Source: Isosphaeraceae bacterium
GTDB lineage: Bacteria; Planctomycetota; Planctomycetia; Isosphaerales; Isosphaeraceae
Assembly (NCBI GenBank): GCA_025356435.1
Contig: JANXSY010000233.1
Coordinates: 7-64,006 of the forward strand
Reading direction: 5' to 3'
DNA length: 64,000 nucleotides
Shown: in pieces, positions 25,352-36,940 of the stretch
Numbering within the stretch: position 1 is the stretch's first letter
How the letters are laid out: each line of letters starts with the position of its first letter
Position numbers and translations under genes: made by a program
The notes under the pieces: model-generated
Databases searched by the model: none
What the model saw: the letters and a program-made list of their open reading frames with translations, nothing else
Told to the model about the DNA's origin: nothing

Positions 25352-28300
25352 TCAACGTCCCCTGCGCGGCGGTGCTGCCGGCTGGGGGATGAGGCGGATC
25401 TCGTTGTTGTTGGCGTCGAAGCAATCGATCTGGAGATGCTCCGGCGGGGCTTCGTCCTCGTGGCGGATGTGGATGGTCATGTTGGCCTCCACCTCGAAGC
25501 GGGTCAGGTCGCTGCGCTTGCGGTTGTTGAGATAGTTGGCGACAGCGAGGCAGACGCCGATGTTCACGCGGCGGACGTCGGCACGGTTTGACGCGAGCGC
25601 GAGCAACCTCATGACGTCGATCGACATGCTTTCAACCGTCTTCACCTGACCCATCCCGGCGCAGTGCGTGCAGTCTTCGTAGACCGAACGCTTGAGGCTG
25701 GGCCGGATGCGTTGGCGGGTCATCTCGATGAGGCCAAACTGGCTCATCCTGAGGACCTTGGTGCGGGCGCGATCTCGCTTGATCGCGTCGCGGATGGCCT
25801 TCTCGACGCCTCGGCGGTTCTTCTCGTCCCGCATGTCGATGAAGTCGTTGACGATCACGCCGCCGAGGTCGCGGAGCCTGAGCTGGCGGGCGATCTCCTT
25901 CGCGGCGCGGAGGTTCATCTCATAGGCGGTGCGCTCGGGATCGTTCTCGAACCGGAAGTTGCCCGAGTTCACGTCGATCGCGACGAGGGCCTCGGTCTGG
26001 TCGATGACGATTGAGCCGCCTTCGGGAAGGTCGACCCGCCTGCGCTGGATCTTGGCGATCTCGTCTTCGATGCCGTACTTGTGGAAGAGCGGCACCTTTT
26101 CGTCGTAGAGCTTGAGCCGGTTGACGAACCGGGGCATCACGACGCGGAGGAACTCCTGAGCCCGTTCGAAGGCGGCGGGCTCGTCGATCCAGATCGTGTC
26201 GATCTCGGCGGTGAAGATGTCGCGGATGGTCCGCGTAATCATGTCCGACTCTTGATAGATCGGCGTCGGGCCCTTGGCCACTTTGATCCGGCGGAGAATC
26301 ACCTTCCAGAGCCGGAGCAGGTAGGCAAGGTCTCGGGCGAGGTCGCGCTTCGAGCGGTCAAGCCCAGCGGTCCTGACGATGAATCCGAGCCCCTTGGGGG
26401 GGTTCAGGTCGGTCATGATCTCGCGGAGCTTCCTGCGCTGACCCTCGTCGGCGATCTTGCGGGAGACGCCGACCCGGTTCAGCCCAGGCATCAGGACGAG
26501 ATAGCGACCGGGGATGCTGATGTAGGTCGAGAGGGTCGGACCTTTGGTGCCGATGCTCTCCTTGATGACCTGGACGAGGACTTCGTCGCCCCGGCGGAAG
26601 ATGTCCTGAAGCGGGGGCTTGACCGTGCCACGGCCTCGGGGCGACTTGCCACCTCGGCCGCCGTCGGCCTCGGAGTCGTCGCCGCGACGGGGTCGCGCTT
26701 CGACCGGCCCTCGCAGGCCCATCTCGCGTTCGAGTTCGGCGATCTCCTCGATCTCTTTGCGGATTTCCTCTTCGAGCTCGGGGTCGATCTCGTCGTCGGG
26801 GTTCGGGGCGCCGCGCGTTGCGGAGGCCTCGTCGTCATCGAAGTCGTCTTCGTCGTCATCCTCGTCGTGGCGGGCCTCGTCGCCGAAGTCGAAGTCGTCG
26901 GCGTGCGGTCCCTCGTCGGTCAGCGGGGGGACCGATTCGTCGAGGTCGAGGTCGAGATCCAGGTCATCAGCCGGGGCCTTGGCCACGTCTCGCGTCGGGC
27001 GGTCCCCTTCGCGGCGACGGCGACGGCGGCGACGACGACGGGTACCCGCCGCGCGGTCGGCCTCAGACTCGGGCTCGTGCTCACTGTCGCCCGCCGCATC
27101 GAGGTCGTCGCCACGATCGTCGTCGACATCAGACCAGCTAGCCGGGCTGGGCTCGGGATCAAAGAGTGAATCGCCCGCCCGCATCCGGCGGGGGACATAT
27201 CCCTCTTCGCCTGCGCGGTCGGTCGGTCGGTTGGGCTCGCGGTCCCGGGTTGAACCGGGGGCCGGCCGCTCGGGCTCGACGGCCCGACGACGCTCGGGGG
27301 CCGAGGGCCGCTCGACGACGGGGGGCCGTTCGGCAGCGATCGGACGGGGTGCCTCGATCGGACGCGAACGTTCACGGGTCGGCTCGGCGACCCGCTCCTC
27401 GGCGACGGGGCGGAATCGTTCAGGCTCGCGCGGGGCGACCGGAGCTCGCGGGGCGACCGGCTCACGCGGGACCGACGGCTCACGCGGCGCTGCAAGCTCA
27501 CGCGGCGCTGACGCCTCACGATCGCCGCCTCGGCCGCGGATGGCGTCGCGTCCGCCTCGCCGGCGTGGGGCCTCGGGACGATCGGTGTGGGCCGGCTCGT
27601 GAGCGACCTCGTCGTGCAGGATCGGATCTACGGTCTCGGGCTCTGGCTGGAATCGGGCCTCGGCTTCGGGTCGAGGCGTACGGGCGGGCCTGCCGCCTCG
27701 GCCCCGGCGAGGCTCACGCTCTTGGACGTCAGCCGGTTCAGACACGGGCTCGCGGTCGCGGATTGGGGCAGGGGCCGCAGTCCGGGTGCGTGGGGCGTCT
27801 TCCCCTTCGATCGACCGGGAAGCAGGGACGGCGCGGGTGCGTGGGGCGTCTTCCCCTTCAATCGACCGGGAAGCGGGGACGGCGCGGGTGCGGACTTCGC
27901 GAACTTCGCTGACCGGCTCGGTCGGGCGGGGCGGGGGCATTGGTGCCCGCTGGCGATTCGTCCGGCTCGGCGGCAGGTCGATCTCGAACGGGTCGGCCGG
28001 GGGGCGTGAGACGCGAGCGCGAGGCTCGTCGACCGGCGTGGCAGACCTGACGGGCTCATACGCGTCGGGGAGCCGGGGGGCGCGGGCAGGCGGCTCGGGC
28101 GGCCTCGACGCGGGGGGAGCGACCTCGGAACGACGACGGGCCTGCGGCTCCTCACGCTCGAACCGCTCGGGCTCGGGCTGGCGGACGGGCGGCGGCTCGG
28201 CGGCTCGGGGCGGCGGTGGGCTGGGACGCCAGTCTTCCTGGTCGGCCAATCCTTCGCCAAACCGGCGTTCGGTGCGGTCGCGATGGCCCTTCTCAGATCG

Positions 28301-28723
28301 GTCGGGGCGTTCGGGGCGCGACGTCCGGTCGTCGGGATAGCTCGGCGGCGGGGGGAGCGGGTCGCGGTCTTCAGCCGACGCGGGGGGACGGGGACGACGG
28401 CCTCGATCGCCGCCTGAGGCCCGCTCTCGGTCTCGTCTCGGCTCGCGGGCGGGGGCTGCTTCCCCTTCGTCTCCGCCCTTACCGCGATAATACTGGGGCT
28501 CAACGTCGGAGACGTGGAGGAACCCGTTACGGCCGACGGAGAAGTCGACGAACGCAGCCTGGATCGCCGGTTCGAGGTTGACGACTTTGCCTTTGTAGAT
28601 GTTGCCGGTATAGCTCTCGTGGCTGGTTCGCTCGACGTAAAGCTCTTCGAGGATCCCATCTTCAAGGATGGCGATCCGGCACTCCTCCGGCTGGAGTACG
28701 TTGATCAACATTTCTTTTTTCAT
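25352..28723 (-). CDS. rne: ribonuclease E with an insertion of about 620 aa, low-complexity, inside the S1 domain
   Basis: ORF track 1123 aa. N-terminus MKKEMLINVLQPEECRIAILEDG...NIYKGKVVNLEPAIQAAFVDFSVGRNGFLHVSDV. The catalytic core resumes at IFRRGDEVLVQVIKESIGTKGPTLSTYISIPGRYLVLMPG. DNase-I-like VAIDVNSG. Zn-link CTHCAGMG. Confidence 0.95.
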   Translation of the reverse strand: MKKEMLINVLQPEECRIAILEDGILEELYVERTSHESYTGNIYKGKVVNLEPAIQAAFVDFSVGRNGFLHVSDVEPQYYRGKGGDEGEAAPAREPRRDRERASGGDRGRRPRPPASAEDRDPLPPPPSYPDDRTSRPERPDRSEKGHRDRTERRFGEGLADQEDWRPSPPPPRAAEPPPVRQPEPERFEREEPQARRRSEVAPPASRPPEPPARAPRLPDAYEPVRSATPVDEPRARVSRPPADPFEIDLPPSRTNRQRAPMPPPRPTEPVSEVREVRTRAVPASRSIEGEDAPRTRAVPASRSIEGEDAPRTRTAAPAPIRDREPVSEPADVQEREPRRGRGGRPARTPRPEAEARFQPEPETVDPILHDEVAHEPAHTDRPEAPRRRGGRDAIRGRGGDREASAPRELAAPREPSVPREPVAPRAPVAPREPERFRPVAEERVAEPTRERSRPIEAPRPIAAERPPVVERPSAPERRRAVEPERPAPGSTRDREPNRPTDRAGEEGYVPRRMRAGDSLFDPEPSPASWSDVDDDRGDDLDAAGDSEHEPESEADRAAGTRRRRRRRRRREGDRPTRDVAKAPADDLDLDLDLDESVPPLTDEGPHADDFDFGDEARHDEDDDEDDFDDDEASATRGAPNPDDEIDPELEEEIRKEIEEIAELEREMGLRGPVEARPRRGDDSEADGGRGGKSPRGRGTVKPPLQDIFRRGDEVLVQVIKESIGTKGPTLSTYISIPGRYLVLMPGLNRVGVSRKIADEGQRRKLREIMTDLNPPKGLGFIVRTAGLDRSKRDLARDLAYLLRLWKVILRRIKVAKGPTPIYQESDMITRTIRDIFTAEIDTIWIDEPAAFERAQEFLRVVMPRFVNRLKLYDEKVPLFHKYGIEDEIAKIQRRRVDLPEGGSIVIDQTEALVAIDVNSGNFRFENDPERTAYEMNLRAAKEIARQLRLRDLGGVIVNDFIDMRDEKNRRGVEKAIRDAIKRDRARTKVLRMSQFGLIEMTRQRIRPSLKRSVYEDCTHCAGMGQVKTVESMSIDVMRLLALASNRADVRRVNIGVCLAVANYLNNRKRSDLTRFEVEANMTIHIRHEDEAPPEHLQIDCFDANNNEIRLIPQPAAPPRRGR
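27784..27885. repeat. 51-bp direct tandem duplication inside rne
   Basis: Units 27784-27834 and 27835-27885 differ at 2 of 51 positions. They encode RAVPASRSIEGEDAPRT twice. Confidence 0.85.
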
Positions 28724-28892
28724 GCGCGCGTACTTTCTGACGCAGTCGTGGATGTGGCGATGGGTCGGTATAGCAGCATCCGGTCCCGAGGCGAGGAGAG
28801 TCGCGAAACCGCCAAGGCCCTCTCAGGGCGAGGCGCGGGGGGCCGGGGAGCCGAGGTCTTCGATCGGAGTCGCTTTTCGGGCGATGGGCGGT

Positions 28893-29543
28893 TCAAGAGG
28901 TCAGCTCCAGGTCGGTGCGAGCCAGGAACGAACCTTCGCGGAGCAGGTCGCTCAGGCCGAGGACGTCGACGACGTCCTCCGGACGGGCGGCGGCACCGCT
29001 GTTGGTCACCTTCAGGCGGAAGCGAAGGACACCTTCCGGGTCAATCGCCGCATCGAGCAGGAACGGACGGAGGTCAAGCTCAACGGTCTTGTCGGGCCGT
29101 CGGCGTGCATAAGGCCGGGTCTCGGCGGCGAGCAGTTCGGCCAGGGAAGCGTTTGCACCGGCGAGCCGGTCGGACGGAAGGGCAAGGCAGTACCAGACCG
29201 CGCCGGCCTGTGCGGCGCGGGGAGAAAAGCTTGGCTCGGCTTCGAGCCATTCGAGGCCCGGCGGTGAGGTCGCCGCCAGGCGAGAGAGGACCTCGGCCGG
29301 CTCCAACGGCTCGGTCAGGTCGATCTCTACCACTTCCCGACAGCCCTCGATCCCCAGTGCCAGCGACAGGGTGAACGTGACTTTCGGGCGAGGGTTGAAT
29401 CCTTGAGTCACCGCTACCGGGATCTCGGCGCGGCGTAACGCACGCTCCAGGCAGCGCACCAGATCATGGTGGCTGACAAGGCGAAGGTCGCCGCGTTTGG
29501 CGAATCGGAGGCGGATTTTCAAGATGGGGGCAGCTGCGGTCAT
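28893..29543 (-). CDS. DUF2344 (TIGR03936) radical-SAM-associated protein
   Basis: LKIRLRFAKRGDLRLVSHHDLVRCLERALRRAEIPVAVTQGFNPRPKVTF is the family signature. Start at the internal ATG 29541-29543. Confidence 0.85.
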   Translation of the reverse strand: MTAAAPILKIRLRFAKRGDLRLVSHHDLVRCLERALRRAEIPVAVTQGFNPRPKVTFTLSLALGIEGCREVVEIDLTEPLEPAEVLSRLAATSPPGLEWLEAEPSFSPRAAQAGAVWYCLALPSDRLAGANASLAELLAAETRPYARRRPDKTVELDLRPFLLDAAIDPEGVLRFRLKVTNSGAAARPEDVVDVLGLSDLLREGSFLARTDLELTS

Positions 29544-29840
29544 TGCGGCGCGTCGGACCCGTCCGGGGGTCCGTTCCGGCCCGGCCACGCGATACGACGA
29601 CGCCGACCTGGCGGCCATATGGCCAGGGTCGATGCGCGGTCGATGAGCGAGGCGAGGGTGGTTCCTGGTGTCAGTCCGTGTGTCGTCGGATCTTCCGGGC
29701 GGGCCGGGCTACGAGCCTCAGCATCGCCATTGTCTCGGTCGATTTCGGTGTTGCTTGTCCGGTGTCGAGGTGATCGGGCGCGATGGCCGGTCGTCCGGCG
29801 ATCGTCTCTTCCTTTGTTTTCGCGGAAACGGAGCGTCGCG

Positions 29841-31625
29841 TCAACGGGTCGGTGCCGAGCATTGTCCGGGCGGGCCATCGGGGAGGGTCAGCTCGAGCGC
29901 CGCACGGAGCATTGTCACGACGGCACAGGCCGAGTCGAGCCCCAGCGCTTCGGCGGCCAGCGAACGGGCCTGGTCGAGCCGGACGGCGCGGATCACCCGC
30001 TTCATCTCGGGGAGTTGGTGTGGCGGCATACTGAGGTTGCGGACCCCCAGGCCGAGGAGCAGGAGGGCGTGGAGCGGCTCGCCCCCCATCGTCCCGCAGA
30101 CGGTGACCTCAATGCCCCGGGCGTCGGCGGCGGAGACGACCATCTTGATCAGGCGGAGCACAGCGGGGTCGGCCGCGTTGTAGAGGTCGGCCACCGCCTC
30201 GTTTGTGCGGTCGACAGCGAGCGTGTACTGGATCAGGTCGTTGGTGCCGATCGAGAAGAAGTCAACTTCCTTCGCGAGCTTGTCGGCCATGATCGCGGCG
30301 GCGGGCACCTCGATCATCGCGCCGACGGGGAGGTTGGATCGGACGGAGTGCCCTTCGGCCAGGAGTTCGCCGGTGACTTCCGCGAGCAGCCGCCGCGCGG
30401 CCCGCAGCTCGTCGAGGCTTGTGACCAGGGGAAACATCAGGCGGACGTCACCCGACGCGGCGGCCCGGAGGATGGCGCGGAGCTGGGTACGGAACAGGGC
30501 GGGCTCGCGGAGTGAAAGCCGCAGGCTCCGCAGGCCGAGCACCGGGTTGGCCTCGACAAGTCCCCGACCCTGGTACGACGGCAGCTTGTCGGCCCCGAGG
30601 TCGAGGGTGCGGATCGTGATCGGCTGCCCCTTGAGCGAGCGGACGACTGTCGCATACGCCTCGTATTGCTCGTCTTCCGTCGGCGGTCGATCGGCGTTGA
30701 GGAAGAGGAACTCGGTGCGGTAGAGCCCGACGCCAATCGCGCCCCGCTCCAGGCAGGGGGAGACTTCGGCCGGGAACTCGATGTTGCCCCAGAGCCCGAC
30801 GTTGCAGCCGTCGAGCGTGACGGCCGGCAGTGTAGCGAGGTTGGTCAATCCCTGGAATCGCGCGACGCGCTCGGCGGCGAGACGGCGATAGCGGTCGAGG
30901 GTCGGCTCGTCGGGGTCGAGGATCACGAGGCCGTCGTCGCCGTCGATGATCACCGCCAGGGCGTCGCGTGCCTGGTCGAGGAACCGGCCGAGGCCGACGA
31001 CAGCGGGGATCTCCAACGCCTCAGCGACAATGGCGGTGTGGCTGGCCCGGCCCCCCGCCTCGGTGGCAAAGCCGAGCACCAACGCGGGGTCGAGGCCGGC
31101 GGTCTCGCTCGGCGAGAGGTCGGCCGCGAGGACGATGATCGGCGTGTCCGAATCGACCGTGCCGCCGGTCGGGCTCGGGGCGTCGTCGGCGGGCTGGAAG
31201 TGGCCGAGAATCCGGCGTTGGATGTCGCGGACATCGGCGGCGCGGGCGGCGAGGTGGGGGTCGGGCATCGCTTCGAGCCGCGACGCATAGGCGTCAAGCA
31301 CCTCGGCGACAGCCTGTTCCGCGTTGACCCGCTCGCGTTCGATCCTGGCCCGCGAGTCGCGGAGCAGTGAGGGGTCGGCGATCATCCTGGCGTGGGCCCC
31401 GAAGATGTCGGCATATTGCGGACCCAGGCGGAGACGAGCCTCGGACTCGGCGGCTTCGGCGTCGACCTTGGCGAGGCAGATGGCGAGGTCGAGCCGCTGG
31501 AATTCGCCGGGCACACCCTCGGCAGTGATCGAGCGGCGCGGGGCGGAGACCCGGCGGAGGTCGATTACCATCGCCGGGCCGATCGCGATGCCAGGGCTGA
31601 CGGCGATCCCTCGTAGGGTTTTCAT
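29841..31625 (-). CDS. ptsI: phosphoenolpyruvate-protein phosphotransferase (PTS enzyme I, no GAF domain)
   Basis: [22 protein letters not shown]...[21 protein letters not shown] (active-site His region)...[15 protein letters not shown]. Start at the internal ATG 31623-31625. Confidence 0.95.
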
Positions 31626-31726
31626 CGTGGTGGATACGGCCGGAATCGGGACTCTGCCGGATGGGTTGGGAACCGCCTCGGATTGGCCGCGGTCAGGCCG
31701 GGTTCGGCGTCGGTCCCCGGGGGACT

Positions 31727-32062
31727 TCAAGACTCTTGCTCGACGCTGTCGCCGTCGTCGTCTTCGTAGAATCTCGCGAAAGCGAGGGCGACGAGGGCCG
31801 TGACGGCTTGCTCGGCGTCGGGGCCTCGGGCTTCGACTTCGAGGACGGTGCCTTGCTCGGCGGCAAGCATCGCGAGAGAGAGGATACTCTTTCCGTCGAC
31901 CTCTTCGCCGTGATTCTCTTGCCCATTGCGATAGACCCGGATTTCGGATTGAAATTCGGAAGCGAGCTTCACGAACTTCGCGGCCGGGCGCAGGTGCAGC
32001 CCCAGCGCGTTGAGGATCTCAATCGGGCGGCGGGCGAAGCGCGTGTCGTCCTGGCTCATCAT
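31727..32062 (-). CDS. ptsH: HPr-family phosphocarrier protein with acidic C-terminal tail
   Basis: [16 protein letters not shown] (His15 region) and [11 protein letters not shown] (Ser46 region). Start MMSQD at 32060-32062. The tail is [13 protein letters not shown]. Confidence 0.9.
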
Positions 32063-35758: not shown

Positions 35759-36940
35759 TCAGTACTGGTCAGAGCTCATGACCGTGCCGTCTTTCCGGAC
35801 CAGGAGATTGAACCAGACGCGCTGGGAGACGGAGTCCTTGATGAACCTGACGCTGCCGTCGCCGAACCCGACGTTCACTCCACCGGCGTGGAGGCTGCGA
35901 GATTGCCCGCCGCTGTTGAAGTTGCCGCCGCTGCAGTTGAATCCCATGCCCTGTTGTGCGGCCTTGGGATAGAGCATGCCCATCACGTCTCCGGCCTGCA
36001 TCTCGTCGCCACCGTCGTTGCAGTTTCCGGGGGGCAGGCCCAACTTATTGTTGGGGGTCGGGTTGTAATTCTTGGCGTGACCGGCAAGGCTCGCCGAACC
36101 GAGGCCGATCGCCCAGGTTCCGCGGATGTCCATCGACCCGAGACCGACTCGCAACTCGGCGATCGCAGCGGTATTCGACAGGCCGTCGGTGACACCCGCG
36201 ATCGTCGTCCCAAAATTGAGGGACATCATCCCGCTCTTCGACACGCCCGGGAACGGCAGGTAGGGGTGTCCGCTCGAACTCACGAGCCCATCGACCCCGT
36301 TCATGACGTGGTCGGGGTCGGTCGCTCCCTGAACGGCACCGTAATTCCCCCGCGCCCAGTTGGTCAGGATGGCACCGGTCCGCTGATCTTTGGGTGCATA
36401 TTGTGGGTAGTTGGATGCGTCGCTCGGGGTGCAGAAGAACTTGTCCGCACCGTTATTCGGGTCGGTCGGGCAGACGAAGACGTTGACCCGGGTCGAGCGG
36501 ACGGTCGCATTCGCCCAGTCCATGTTGTACATCGACGCGTTCGGGGCGCTGCTCGCTCCGGGGACCGAGTAGGGACCGGCCCATCCGGGATAACCGAGGA
36601 CGTTCGAGGCGTTGTAGAGGGCCTGCTGCTCGATGAACGGCAGGATCATGATGGCCCAGTTCGGCCCGAACGGCTCGGTCTGGTCGCTCCCCAGCGAGTC
36701 GGAGCCCGTGATCTGGTCCAGCCCATTGAGAAAGGGCTGATTGACGCCCTTCGGGAAGGCCCCGTTGGCCGACTCGAAGTTGTGCAATCCCAAGAGGAGT
36801 TGCTTCATGTTGTTAACACACTGCGAGCGGCGGGCAGCCTCGCGAGCGGCCTGGACTGCGGGCAAAAGCAGGGCGATCAGCACGGCGATGATTGCGATCA
36901 CGACCAGGAGTTCAATGAGGGTAAACGCACGACGACGCAT
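35759..36940 (-). CDS. DUF1559 domain protein with prepilin-type N-terminal methylation motif
   Basis: [48 protein letters not shown], and near the C-terminus [19 protein letters not shown] (the H-X9-DG motif). Confidence 0.95.

Follow-up and report, generated by a model that had tools for sequence, protein, structure and literature searches.

A planctomycete RNase E with a large, predicted disordered insert inside its S1 domain and no terminal extension

The window analysed here, a 64,000-nucleotide stretch of contig JANXSY010000233.1 from an Isosphaeraceae bacterium, carries on its minus strand an uninterrupted reading frame of 1123 aa whose product is an RNase E of the Isosphaeraceae-type planctomycetes. 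The gene, its parts and its upstream neighbour are as follows.

25352..28723, minus strand: rne, 1123 aa, RNase E with an S1-embedded, predicted disordered region and no terminal extension (open reading frame, Pfam, PDB match, Foldseek)
28481..28723, minus strand: residues 1-81, RNase H-like subdomain and first half of S1 (strands 1-3, short helix), by alignment to E. coli 2-80 and pLDDT 87-98
26621..28480, minus strand: residues 82-701, insert of ~620 aa, predicted disordered, in the connection between S1 strands 3 and 4 (gap at E. coli 81-86, pLDDT, charge blocks, dN/dS)
25352..26620, minus strand: residues 702-1123, second half of S1 (strands 4-5), 5' sensor, DNase I-like catalytic domain, Zn-link, small domain and stop, by alignment to E. 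coli 87-466 and pLDDT >90
28893..29618, minus strand: DUF2344 protein, upstream neighbour of rne (Pfam, 5.1e-39)

In many bacteria, RNase E governs mRNA decay globally. As judged by alignment, the catalytic machinery of this enzyme is complete. Pfam placed RNase_E_G (PF10150) at residues 736-1005 (2.8e-100) and the thioredoxin-like small domain (PF20833) at residues 1018-1100 (1.9e-18), and a phmmer search of the PDB matched structures of RNase E from E. coli (7.5e-112). The S1 RNA contacts F58 and F68 (E. coli F57 and F67), K727 (K112), the 5'-monophosphate sensor residues R784 and T785 (R169 and T170), the catalytic D917, N919 and D960 (D303, N305 and D346) and a Zn-link of the CPxCxGxG type (C1018 and C1021) were all aligned, and each is invariant or at least 90% conserved across 120 close homologues drawn from NCBI, JGI, ENA and Logan, the three catalytic residues being invariant. 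Identity to E. coli RNase E is 38-42% over ~410 aligned core columns (Foldseek), with all functional residues conserved. The features that define the RNase E/G family, namely metal-binding Asp/Asn, S1 contacts with the 5' sensor, and the Zn-link with the small domain, which serve tetramer formation in RNase E, are therefore present. No rne 5'-UTR-like element was found upstream of the gene with Rfam, and no genes for PNPase, a helicase or enolase were found within 10 kb on either side among most of the large open reading frames of the window.

The S1 domain, which spans residues 36-118 in E. coli (PMC4245959), is split. Pfam recognised only half of it (residues 39-75, profile positions 4-38 of 74), and phmmer aligned residues 3-81 with E. 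coli 2-80 and residues 702-1080 with E. coli 87-466, such that ~620 residues (82-701) stand where E. coli has a six-residue loop (81-86) between S1 strands 3 and 4. A construct with the insert deleted aligned in a single piece to E. coli 2-211. An AlphaFold2 run with the 120 close homologues alone gave a mean pLDDT of 50 and left the N-terminal fold unmodelled, while a rerun with a diverse alignment modelled five S1 strands, split three and two around the insert (42-51, 56-60 and 66-70; 714-721 and 730-732), with pLDDT >90 in both halves. The best Foldseek match (2bx2, 3.5e-41) aligned the C-terminal core alone and did not bridge the 620-residue gap, so closure of the S1 barrel was judged from the sequence alignment together with secondary structure and pLDDT. 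The alignment to Caulobacter RNase E (4OXP) breaks at the same S1 site. The initial annotation had assigned both conserved blocks to one S1 domain, ~620 residues apart, and had likened the site to that of the Caulobacter insertion; the split alignments and the single-domain model bear this out, placing the insert within the S1 fold with borders at 82-701 that agree within 5 nt with the earlier coordinates (26625-28485).

Most of residues 85-640 had pLDDT <50, consistent with the predicted disorder, and the one confident element is a helix at residues 648-668 (block-mean pLDDT 82-92 in the close-homologue run and 90-96 in the diverse-alignment run). Residues 82-701 gave no Pfam match, and for this reason, with a single helix as the sole predicted structure, the insert was judged to be neither an intein nor a mobile element and to hide no folded domain. 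Beyond the core there is almost nothing: the protein stops 23 residues past the Pfam small-domain match, rather than the ~30 first estimated, and the 120 homologues likewise end 12-40 aa after R1110, so the reported absence of a C-terminal scaffold stands. With no N- or C-terminal extension, the insert is the sole non-catalytic region. The enzyme thus lacks the long disordered C-terminal region of a classical RNase E, but also differs from RNase G, which has ~490 aa and consists of the catalytic domain without a long non-catalytic region, in its 1123 aa, including the 620-aa insert; the absence of terminal extensions is common to both this enzyme and RNase G.

A layout of this kind might arise from collapsed repeats, a chimeric contig or frameshift-fused genes, and the region is low in complexity, 72-77% GC and contains tandem repeats. 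However, the frame is unbroken, both parts of S1 lie in it on either side of the insert and were modelled as one domain, and the same architecture occurs in the 120 independent homologues, whose inserts range from 461 to 721 aa. The closed isolate genome of Aquisphaera giovannonii (CP042997.1, L082) has the same layout and gene order, and the order PtsI-DUF2344-rne is kept both there and in a second homologous locus (L081). Misassembly, which had been named as a possible refutation, is excluded as the cause because the homologues and the closed genome carry the same architecture, and an artefact of any of these kinds has a negligible chance of explaining it; the large S1 insert is real. GC3 was uninformative about the frame within the insert, where amino-acid composition dominates codon-position GC.

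Comparison of the 120 homologues revealed about nine near-invariant short motif islands separated by variable linkers. These islands, together with the insert's charge blocks and one tandem duplication, are listed from the N-terminal end.

28244..28315, minus strand: residues 137-160, island RPDRSxxGxRDRxxRR-FGEGL-acidic, containing the FGxGL motif, with conservation of 90% or more across the 120 homologues
27947..27997, minus strand: residues 243-259, island DPxxxDLPPSRTxRxR, P251 and R254 invariant, found in 111 of 119 homologues
27783..27892, minus strand: tandem duplication of 51 nt, 2.2 copies, 17-aa unit VPASRSIEGEDAPRTRA, in this genome only (TRF, 96% matches; single-copy in homologues)
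27671..27712, minus strand: residues 338-351, Arg/Gly-rich island PRRGRGGRPARTPR, R339, R342, R345 and R348 at least 90% conserved
27524..27568, minus strand: residues 386-400, Arg-rich/RGG island PRRRGGRDAIRGRGG, candidate RNA-binding segment, G391, I395 and R398 invariant
27179..27217, minus strand: residues 503-515, island RAGEEGYVPRRMR, A504, G505, E506, G508, Y509, P511, R512 and R515 invariant in 120 sequences
27008..27040, minus strand: residues 562-572, poly-arginine run (RRRRRRRRRR), within a block (561-580) of net charge +9
26789..26983, minus strand: residues 581-645, acidic block (DLDLDLDLDE, DDFDFGDE, DDDEDDFDDDE), -6 to -10 per 20 residues
26681..26788, minus strand: residues 646-681, amphipathic helix island IDPELEEEIRKEIEEIAELEREMGLRG..EARPRRG (conservation and pLDDT)
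26627..26638, minus strand: residues 696-699, RGRG directly before S1 strand 4, at least 90% conserved

The FGxGL motif was present in all 119 homologues compared and exceeded expectation in distant giant inserts (19 observed versus 0.40 expected) and in terminal disordered regions, whether N- or C-terminal, of RNase E from other lineages (6 versus 0.70); in Gemmataceae inserts it is likewise followed by acidic residues. The island at 503-515 has the Gemmataceae counterpart GDEEGFVF, a run of at least five arginines occurs in 112 of 119 homologues, and every Planctomycetia insert has a basic run ahead of KPPIQ. Along the helix, the hydrophobic stripe I646, L650, I654, I661, L664 and M668 varies little or not at all across the 120 homologues. 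Gamma-proteobacterial RNase E is reportedly similar in that its microdomains sit in variable linkers. Conserved microdomains have been reported in the non-catalytic regions of these enzymes (PMC4435900).

The insert is rich in R (18%), P (17%), E (13%), A (11%) and D (10%), as first described, and its first-codon-position GC of 0.85 reflects the codons for R, P, A, G, E and D. Charge is arranged in blocks of +9 at residues 561-580 and -6 to -10 at 521-560 and 581-660, with a net charge of about -32 over 581-660. The alternating charge patches claimed for the whole insert were upheld in its C-terminal third only (residues 521-701, kappa 0.37, z = 6.0; whole insert 0.22, z = 3.7), whereas the first two thirds (residues 82-520) form a proline-rich polyampholyte with its charges well mixed (kappa 0.13, z = -1.1). 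Tails from four sampled alpha-proteobacterial genomes, none of them a species with demonstrated BR-bodies, had kappa values of 0.25-0.38. Charge-patched disordered regions are necessary and sufficient for BR-bodies (10.1101/272286). The insert has predicted disorder and Arg-rich/RGG sites, with significant charge segregation in 521-701 alone. Estimated dN/dS was 0.18 for the insert, a rough value given near-saturated dS (~1.3) and a low-complexity alignment that favours matches, compared with 0.045 for the core and 0.013 for the N-terminal block, suggesting purifying selection on the insert that is relaxed relative to the core. Taken together, the disorder, Arg-rich/RGG segments, acidic blocks, motifs and weaker selection support the view that the insert has features typical of a non-catalytic region of RNase E.

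These same data bear on whether the insert is mostly a tolerated low-complexity expansion, produced by replication slippage at a permissive loop in a high-GC genome, with few functional motifs. Many micro-repeats, the genome-specific 17-aa duplication (copy number as assembled), the variation in length (461-721 aa within the family and 307-780 aa beyond it), the first-codon-position GC of 0.85 and the evident viability of relatives with 23-70 aa inserts are all consistent with such growth. However, neutral expansion would be expected to give a dN/dS near 1 rather than 0.18, the ~9 islands are near-invariant across genera, and no sampled giant-insert lineage has shrunk within its clade, the large size being kept across two labelled orders; we regard this reading as quite improbable.

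Among the RNase E sequences sampled, giant inserts were found only in Isosphaerales-like and Gemmatales-like clades (307-780 aa) and in one unlabelled clade, with taxon labels taken from contig loci and a neighbour-joining tree, and no tail-less giant-insert lineage was reduced to a short loop within its clade. The closest cores outside these clades are those of the Pirellulales and Planctomycetales (L002-L013; 62-70% core identity), which are tail-less like the Isosphaeraceae enzyme, except for one representative (P0145, tail of 164), and carry at the same site a small charged insert of 23-70 aa (23-66 aa in L002-L013) with a basic run before KPPIQ. They differ in this small insert and in a total length of ~510-560 aa, the size of RNase G. 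As they have no long disordered region, such a scaffold is evidently dispensable in close relatives. Phycisphaerae-type outgroups mostly have a C-terminal tail and no insert, while L015 and a member of the Brocadiaceae (L019) have neither. The suggestion that the scaffold had moved into S1 is therefore not sustained: the Planctomycetia relatives have small inserts and are nearly all tail-less. Taken with the recent tandem micro-duplications seen in the insert, this phyletic distribution fits expansion in place, a direction that rests on an unsupported neighbour-joining tree.

Insertions at this site are known from other RNase E enzymes. Caulobacter and other alpha-proteobacteria have a charged, largely disordered insert with a helical element at the identical S1 position, and published S1 inserts measure 50-150 aa (PMC4245959) or, in another account, ~50 aa. 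The planctomycete insert belongs to this class as a charged disordered insertion between strands 3 and 4, but departs from it in its ~620 aa and in the absence of terminal extensions, whereas alpha-proteobacterial enzymes combine a short insert with a C-terminal disordered region (4OXP; PMC4245959, PMC3045602). This region, of 200-450 aa, carries degradosome sites and drives BR-bodies (10.1101/272286), and a Caulobacter RNase E fragment containing the S1 insert binds the helicase RhlB (PMC4245959). The planctomycete insert has its helix at the C-terminal end, the alpha-proteobacterial inserts have theirs at the N-terminal end, and no sequence motifs common to the two were found. Chloroplast RNase E (Arabidopsis RNE; PMC2486463) similarly has an S1 insertion and no long C-terminal scaffold, but its insert is of the 50-150 aa class and it has a long N-terminal extension, which the planctomycete enzyme lacks; deletion of the chloroplast insert lowers activity, according to work cited in PMC4245959. 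The non-catalytic region of E. coli RNase E is similar in size (~530 versus 620 aa), disordered, and has Arg-rich segments and short motifs, but is C-terminal rather than internal to S1 and includes a membrane-targeting helix. No hydrophobic or basic membrane-type helix was evident on reading the insert sequence, whose single helix is acidic on its polar face. Ait-Bara and Carpousis are said to have classed the plant chloroplast enzyme as 'type III' in 2015. In actinobacteria (Mycobacterium, Streptomyces), disordered regions flank the central catalytic domain and are terminal, with no folded domain interrupted, which shows that scaffold position is evolutionarily plastic; in mycobacterial RNase E, both the N- and the C-terminal disordered region help to bind RNA and to recruit partners (PMC12767347). 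Searches of partial open-access literature found neither a description of planctomycete RNase E architecture, including the present layout, which is conserved in two planctomycete orders, nor a paper on RNA decay in Planctomycetota.

On the basis of its sequence, the structural models and these analogies, we think it reasonably probable that the S1 loop is the scaffold-type region of this RNase E, grown in place. The loop would do the job of the proteobacterial C-terminal region, with Arg-rich/RGG and poly-Arg segments binding RNA, and FGxGL-acidic, DLPPSRT, GEEGYVPRR and helix 648-668 recruiting partner proteins. Segregated basic and acidic blocks could provide multivalent interactions with RNA and between copies of the protein, possibly leading to condensate formation, and tethering at both ends beside the RNA channel may keep partners and RNA near the S1/5'-sensor clamp, access to which the acidic block may modulate. 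Such a loop could have arisen by stepwise in-place expansion of a small S1 insert through tandem micro-duplication, in the largely tail-less enzymes of the Planctomycetia. Two observations count against the scaffold reading: the charges of residues 82-520 are not segregated, and the Pirellulales and Planctomycetales manage with no long disordered region.

The acidic block also raises the alternative that the insert is mainly a regulatory gate, in which this block and the helix act as an RNA mimic on the basic S1/5'-sensor surface and autoinhibit the enzyme until displaced by a partner or RNA, with scaffolding secondary. In Caulobacter, helices of the S1 insert sit where RNA binds, and it has been proposed that acidic side chains on them mimic RNA (PMC4245959); here a charge of about -32 (581-660) and a conserved helix lie 35-120 residues before S1 strand 4, at an insertion site that adjoins the RNA channel. 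However, tens of residues would suffice for a gate, leaving 460-780 aa unexplained, as are several distant conserved basic motifs and the occurrence of FGxGL in terminal disordered regions elsewhere, and the helix and its alpha-proteobacterial counterpart sit at opposite ends of their inserts. We consider a primarily gating role unlikely, although gating and scaffolding are not mutually exclusive.

To our knowledge, the disordered scaffold that organises the degradosome and BR-bodies is a free terminal extension in every RNase E studied. The Isosphaeraceae enzyme would be a natural variant in which the whole putative scaffold is a closed loop inside an RNA-binding domain, extending the size range of S1 insertions ~4- to 12-fold (620 aa versus the published 50-150 aa). 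It would allow a direct test of how scaffold position and topology affect partner recruitment, condensation and substrate channelling, with the loop-poor Pirellulales and Planctomycetales as built-in controls. More tentatively, the 300-780-aa doubly tethered S1 loop of Isosphaerales and Gemmatales might be the sole degradosome or condensate scaffold, holding partners and RNA at the substrate channel and also serving as a gate, and FGxGL-acidic might be a portable motif for a putative conserved partner, one that different bacterial lineages display on an S1 loop or on an N- or C-terminal extension. The conserved short motifs, FGxGL-acidic in particular, offer handles for finding degradosome components in Planctomycetota.

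The rne gene of the window encodes an RNase E with a predicted disordered region embedded in its S1 domain, which confirms the initial annotation: it had described a disordered stretch of about 620 residues within S1 at 26625-28485, coordinates that are right to within 5 nt of the borders found here.

25352-28723, minus strand: rne, open reading frame for a 1123-aa protein
26621-28480, minus strand: insert inside S1 (residues 82-701), delimited by the gap in the alignment with E. coli RNase E

Alignment to the E. coli PDB sequence fell into two pieces (residues 3-81 with E. coli 2-80, and 702-1080 with 87-466) and, because the E. coli S1 domain spans 36-118 (PMC4245959), approximately 620 residues stand in for a six-residue loop within S1. 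Only half of the S1 profile was matched by Pfam (residues 39-75, profile positions 4-38 of 74), and an insert-deleted construct gave a single unbroken alignment to E. coli residues 2-211. The alignment with the Caulobacter S1/5'-sensor crystal structure (4OXP) breaks at the identical point (chain residues 21-105 and 163-288), so the insertion site is one already known in alpha-proteobacteria. In an AlphaFold2 model built from a diverse 78-sequence alignment, residues 1-80 and 701-1110 had pLDDT >90, with S1 strands modelled before the insert (42-51, 56-60 and 66-70) and after it (714-721 and 730-732). Disorder was predicted for the insert (pLDDT <50 over most of residues 85-640), except for a single helix at 648-668 (pLDDT 90-96). 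Pfam also placed the catalytic domain of the RNase E/G family at residues 736-1005 (E = 2.8e-100), followed by a thioredoxin-like small domain at residues 1018-1100; the chain stops 23 residues past the small-domain match, leaving no C-terminal non-catalytic region, as had been noted from the sequence. Alignment to E. coli RNase E showed no N-terminal extension.

The enzyme appears catalytically competent, judging from residues placed by PDB alignment. The E. coli S1 RNA contacts F57, F67 and K112 correspond to F58, F68 and K727, the 5' sensor residues R169 and T170 to R784 and T785, and the catalytic residues D303, N305 and D346 to D917, N919 and D960, while the Zn-link cysteines are C1018 and C1021. 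Each of these positions is either invariant or conserved in no fewer than 90% of 120 homologues.

The layout is not an artefact. Misassembly, raised initially as a possible objection, is contradicted by the presence of the insert in the best 120 database matches, all 888-1222 aa long and, where named, from Isosphaeraceae (Tundrisphaera, Paludisphaera and Aquisphaera). In the alignment of these homologues the S1 insert had a median length of 594 aa (range 461-721) and R1110 was followed by a tail of 12-40 aa, and the same RNase E architecture occurs on the closed chromosome of Aquisphaera giovannonii (CP042997.1).

The insert contains R (18%), P (17%), E (13%), A (11%) and D (10%). The alternating basic and acidic patches reported initially were borne out in residues 521-701, where charge segregation is strong (kappa 0.37, z = 6.0 versus shuffles) and a poly-Arg run (+9) has acidic blocks on both sides, but not in residues 82-520, a well-mixed polyampholyte with 20% proline (kappa 0.13, z = -1.1 versus shuffles). 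The entire insert had a kappa of 0.22 (z = 3.7 versus shuffles); values were 0.25-0.38 (z = 3-9) in four sampled alpha-proteobacterial C-terminal tails and 0.12-0.20 in three gamma-proteobacterial tails. Comparison of the 120 homologues for conserved short motifs recovered near-invariant islands with variable linkers between them:

residues 137-160: RPDRSxxGxRDRxxRR-FGEGL
residues 243-259: DPxxxDLPPSRTxRxR
residues 338-351: Arg/Gly-rich
residues 386-400: PRRRGGRxAIRxRGG
residues 503-515: RAGEEGYVPRRxR, eight positions invariant
residues 562-572: poly-Arg
around residue 612: DDFDFGDE
residues 646-681: amphipathic helix, hydrophobic stripe invariant
residues 696-699: RGRG

Gamma-proteobacterial RNase E carries microdomains within variable linkers. 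Conservation of such microdomains, in a non-catalytic region that is otherwise disordered, is reported for these enzymes (PMC4435900). Relative to the closest homologue with DNA (L081, 74% identity), dN/dS was 0.18 for the insert, against 0.045 for the catalytic core and 0.013 for the N-terminal block. These values, rough because dS is near saturation, place the insert under purifying, yet relaxed, selection. A dN/dS below 1, the conserved islands and the retention of large size across two labelled orders all argue against the second alternative explanation, that the insert is largely neutral low-complexity inflation.

One motif was of wider occurrence:

28247-28261, minus strand: FGxGL followed by acidic residues (residues 155-159), by motif match

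This motif was present in 119 of 119 Isosphaeraceae-like inserts and, in one to three copies, in the Gemmataceae inserts (L011 and L014, where it reads F[GNT]xGL) and those of distant giant-insert representatives, as well as in N-terminal extensions (P0139, P0161, P0166 and P0185) and C-terminal tails (P0150 and P0171) of other RNase E lineages. FGxGL was observed 19 times in the distant giant inserts, where composition-preserving shuffles predict 0.40, and six times in the N- or C-terminal disordered regions of other lineages, where they predict 0.70 and none of 300 gave more than 3. Its recurrence and shuffle excess suggest a putative partner-binding motif that is portable, travelling with the disordered region whatever its position.

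From the observed architecture we infer that the insert is most likely a non-catalytic RNA-binding, partner-recruiting region of RNase E, and possibly also a condensate-forming one. As the insert chain is held at both ends beside the RNA channel, bound factors would be concentrated at the S1/5'-sensor clamp; such double tethering is a feature of this RNase E, unlike the studied cases. A serious alternative is that the acidic block and helix act in gating or autoinhibition, given that insert helices lie in the RNA site of the Caulobacter structure, and this could operate alongside the scaffold role.

N-terminal extension, S1 insert and tail were measured in the proteins returned by a search with only the catalytic core as query, each standing for one 50%-identity cluster. 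At core identities of at least 59%, most complete representatives had inserts of 307-780 aa, tails of at most 48 aa and no N-terminal extension; the exceptions (P0138, P0139, P0141 and P0145) had S1 inserts 27-70 aa long, with tails of 164-171 aa in two cases. More distant RNase E proteins showed C-terminal, N-terminal, double or mixed layouts. A sizeable class (P0152, P0161, P0166, P0172-P0174, P0185, P0193 and others) had a 300-550 aa N-terminal extension without S1 insert or C-terminal tail, and another class (P0154, P0156, P0162 and P0260) an N-terminal extension plus an S1 insert of ~210 aa.

RNase E layouts by group, from species-representative genomes (L, RNase E locus)
L001, Isosphaerales-like MAG: S1 insert 633 aa; tail none
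L011, Gemmataceae: S1 insert 426 aa; tail 34 aa
L014, Gemmataceae: S1 insert 389 aa; tail 77 aa
L002-L013 except L011 (Pirellulales, Thermoguttaceae, Planctomycetaceae, Fuerstiella): S1 insert 23-66 aa; tail none; protein ~510-560 aa
L016, L018, L020, L021 and L025, Phycisphaerae-type: S1 insert none; tail 226-433 aa
Alpha-proteobacteria: S1 insert 79-320 aa; tail 204-319 aa

Once the giant-insert clades are set aside, the closest cores are those of L002-L010, L012 and L013. These proteins are about as long as RNase G, have a charged insert but no disordered region at either end, and appear to represent planctomycetes without any long RNase E scaffold. In a neighbour-joining tree of insert-deleted cores, built without support values, the giant-insert clades (Isosphaerales-like, 546-750 aa; Gemmatales-like, 314-587 aa; one unlabelled, 307-780 aa) adjoin the short-insert Planctomycetales/Pirellulales, apart from the tail-bearing outgroups. 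Two repeats lie within rne:

27783-27892: tandem duplication, 51 nt x 2.2, 17-aa unit (copy number provisional)
27423-27520: 18/36-nt repeats encoding APREPx units, near the 51-nt repeat

The 51-nt duplication was missing in all homologues examined and, with the nearby APREPx repeats, suggests that the insert is still growing by slippage. The initial interpretation, that the scaffold had moved into S1, holds for S1 placement and the missing tail but not for relocation: the phyletic pattern, micro-repeats and genome-specific duplication favour expansion of a small S1 insert in place rather than transfer of a C-terminal scaffold. A small pre-existing insert would have grown within a largely tail-less enzyme.

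S1 inserts of about 50 to 150 amino acids are described from alpha-proteobacteria and plants (PMC4245959), with one of approximately 50 aa typical of alpha-proteobacteria (PMC5436854). Published S1 inserts always come with a terminal extension, whereas the RNase E of the window has none. Variation in scaffold position is established: mycobacterial RNase E has disordered regions at the N- and C-terminus (PMC12767347), and a Streptomyces 'shuffling' paper is cited in PMC5436854. BR-body studies deal with C-terminal disordered regions (10.1101/272286). A full-text literature search of limited coverage returned no match for planctomycete RNase E, and an earlier mention is possible. The alpha-proteobacterial loci L062, L064, L065 and L068 (MAGs and isolates) have S1 inserts of 187-320 aa, above the published range, some made of His-Asp (HDHDHD...) or GHADA repeats that might bind metal.

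Around rne, the order PtsI (PEP-protein phosphotransferase)-DUF2344-rne (28893-31730, minus strand) is kept in L081 and in Aquisphaera giovannonii (L082, CP042997.1). In the 169 nt that separate rne from its upstream neighbour (28724-28892), no Rfam family was matched, the enterobacterial rne 5' UTR element included; if this stretch holds an autoregulatory leader, the leader would belong to a type not yet described. At 35759-36940 (minus strand) lies a gene for a DUF1559 protein that bears a prepilin-type methylation motif at its N-terminus; the family has expanded strongly in Planctomycetota, and its presence would fit the taxonomy assigned to the window.
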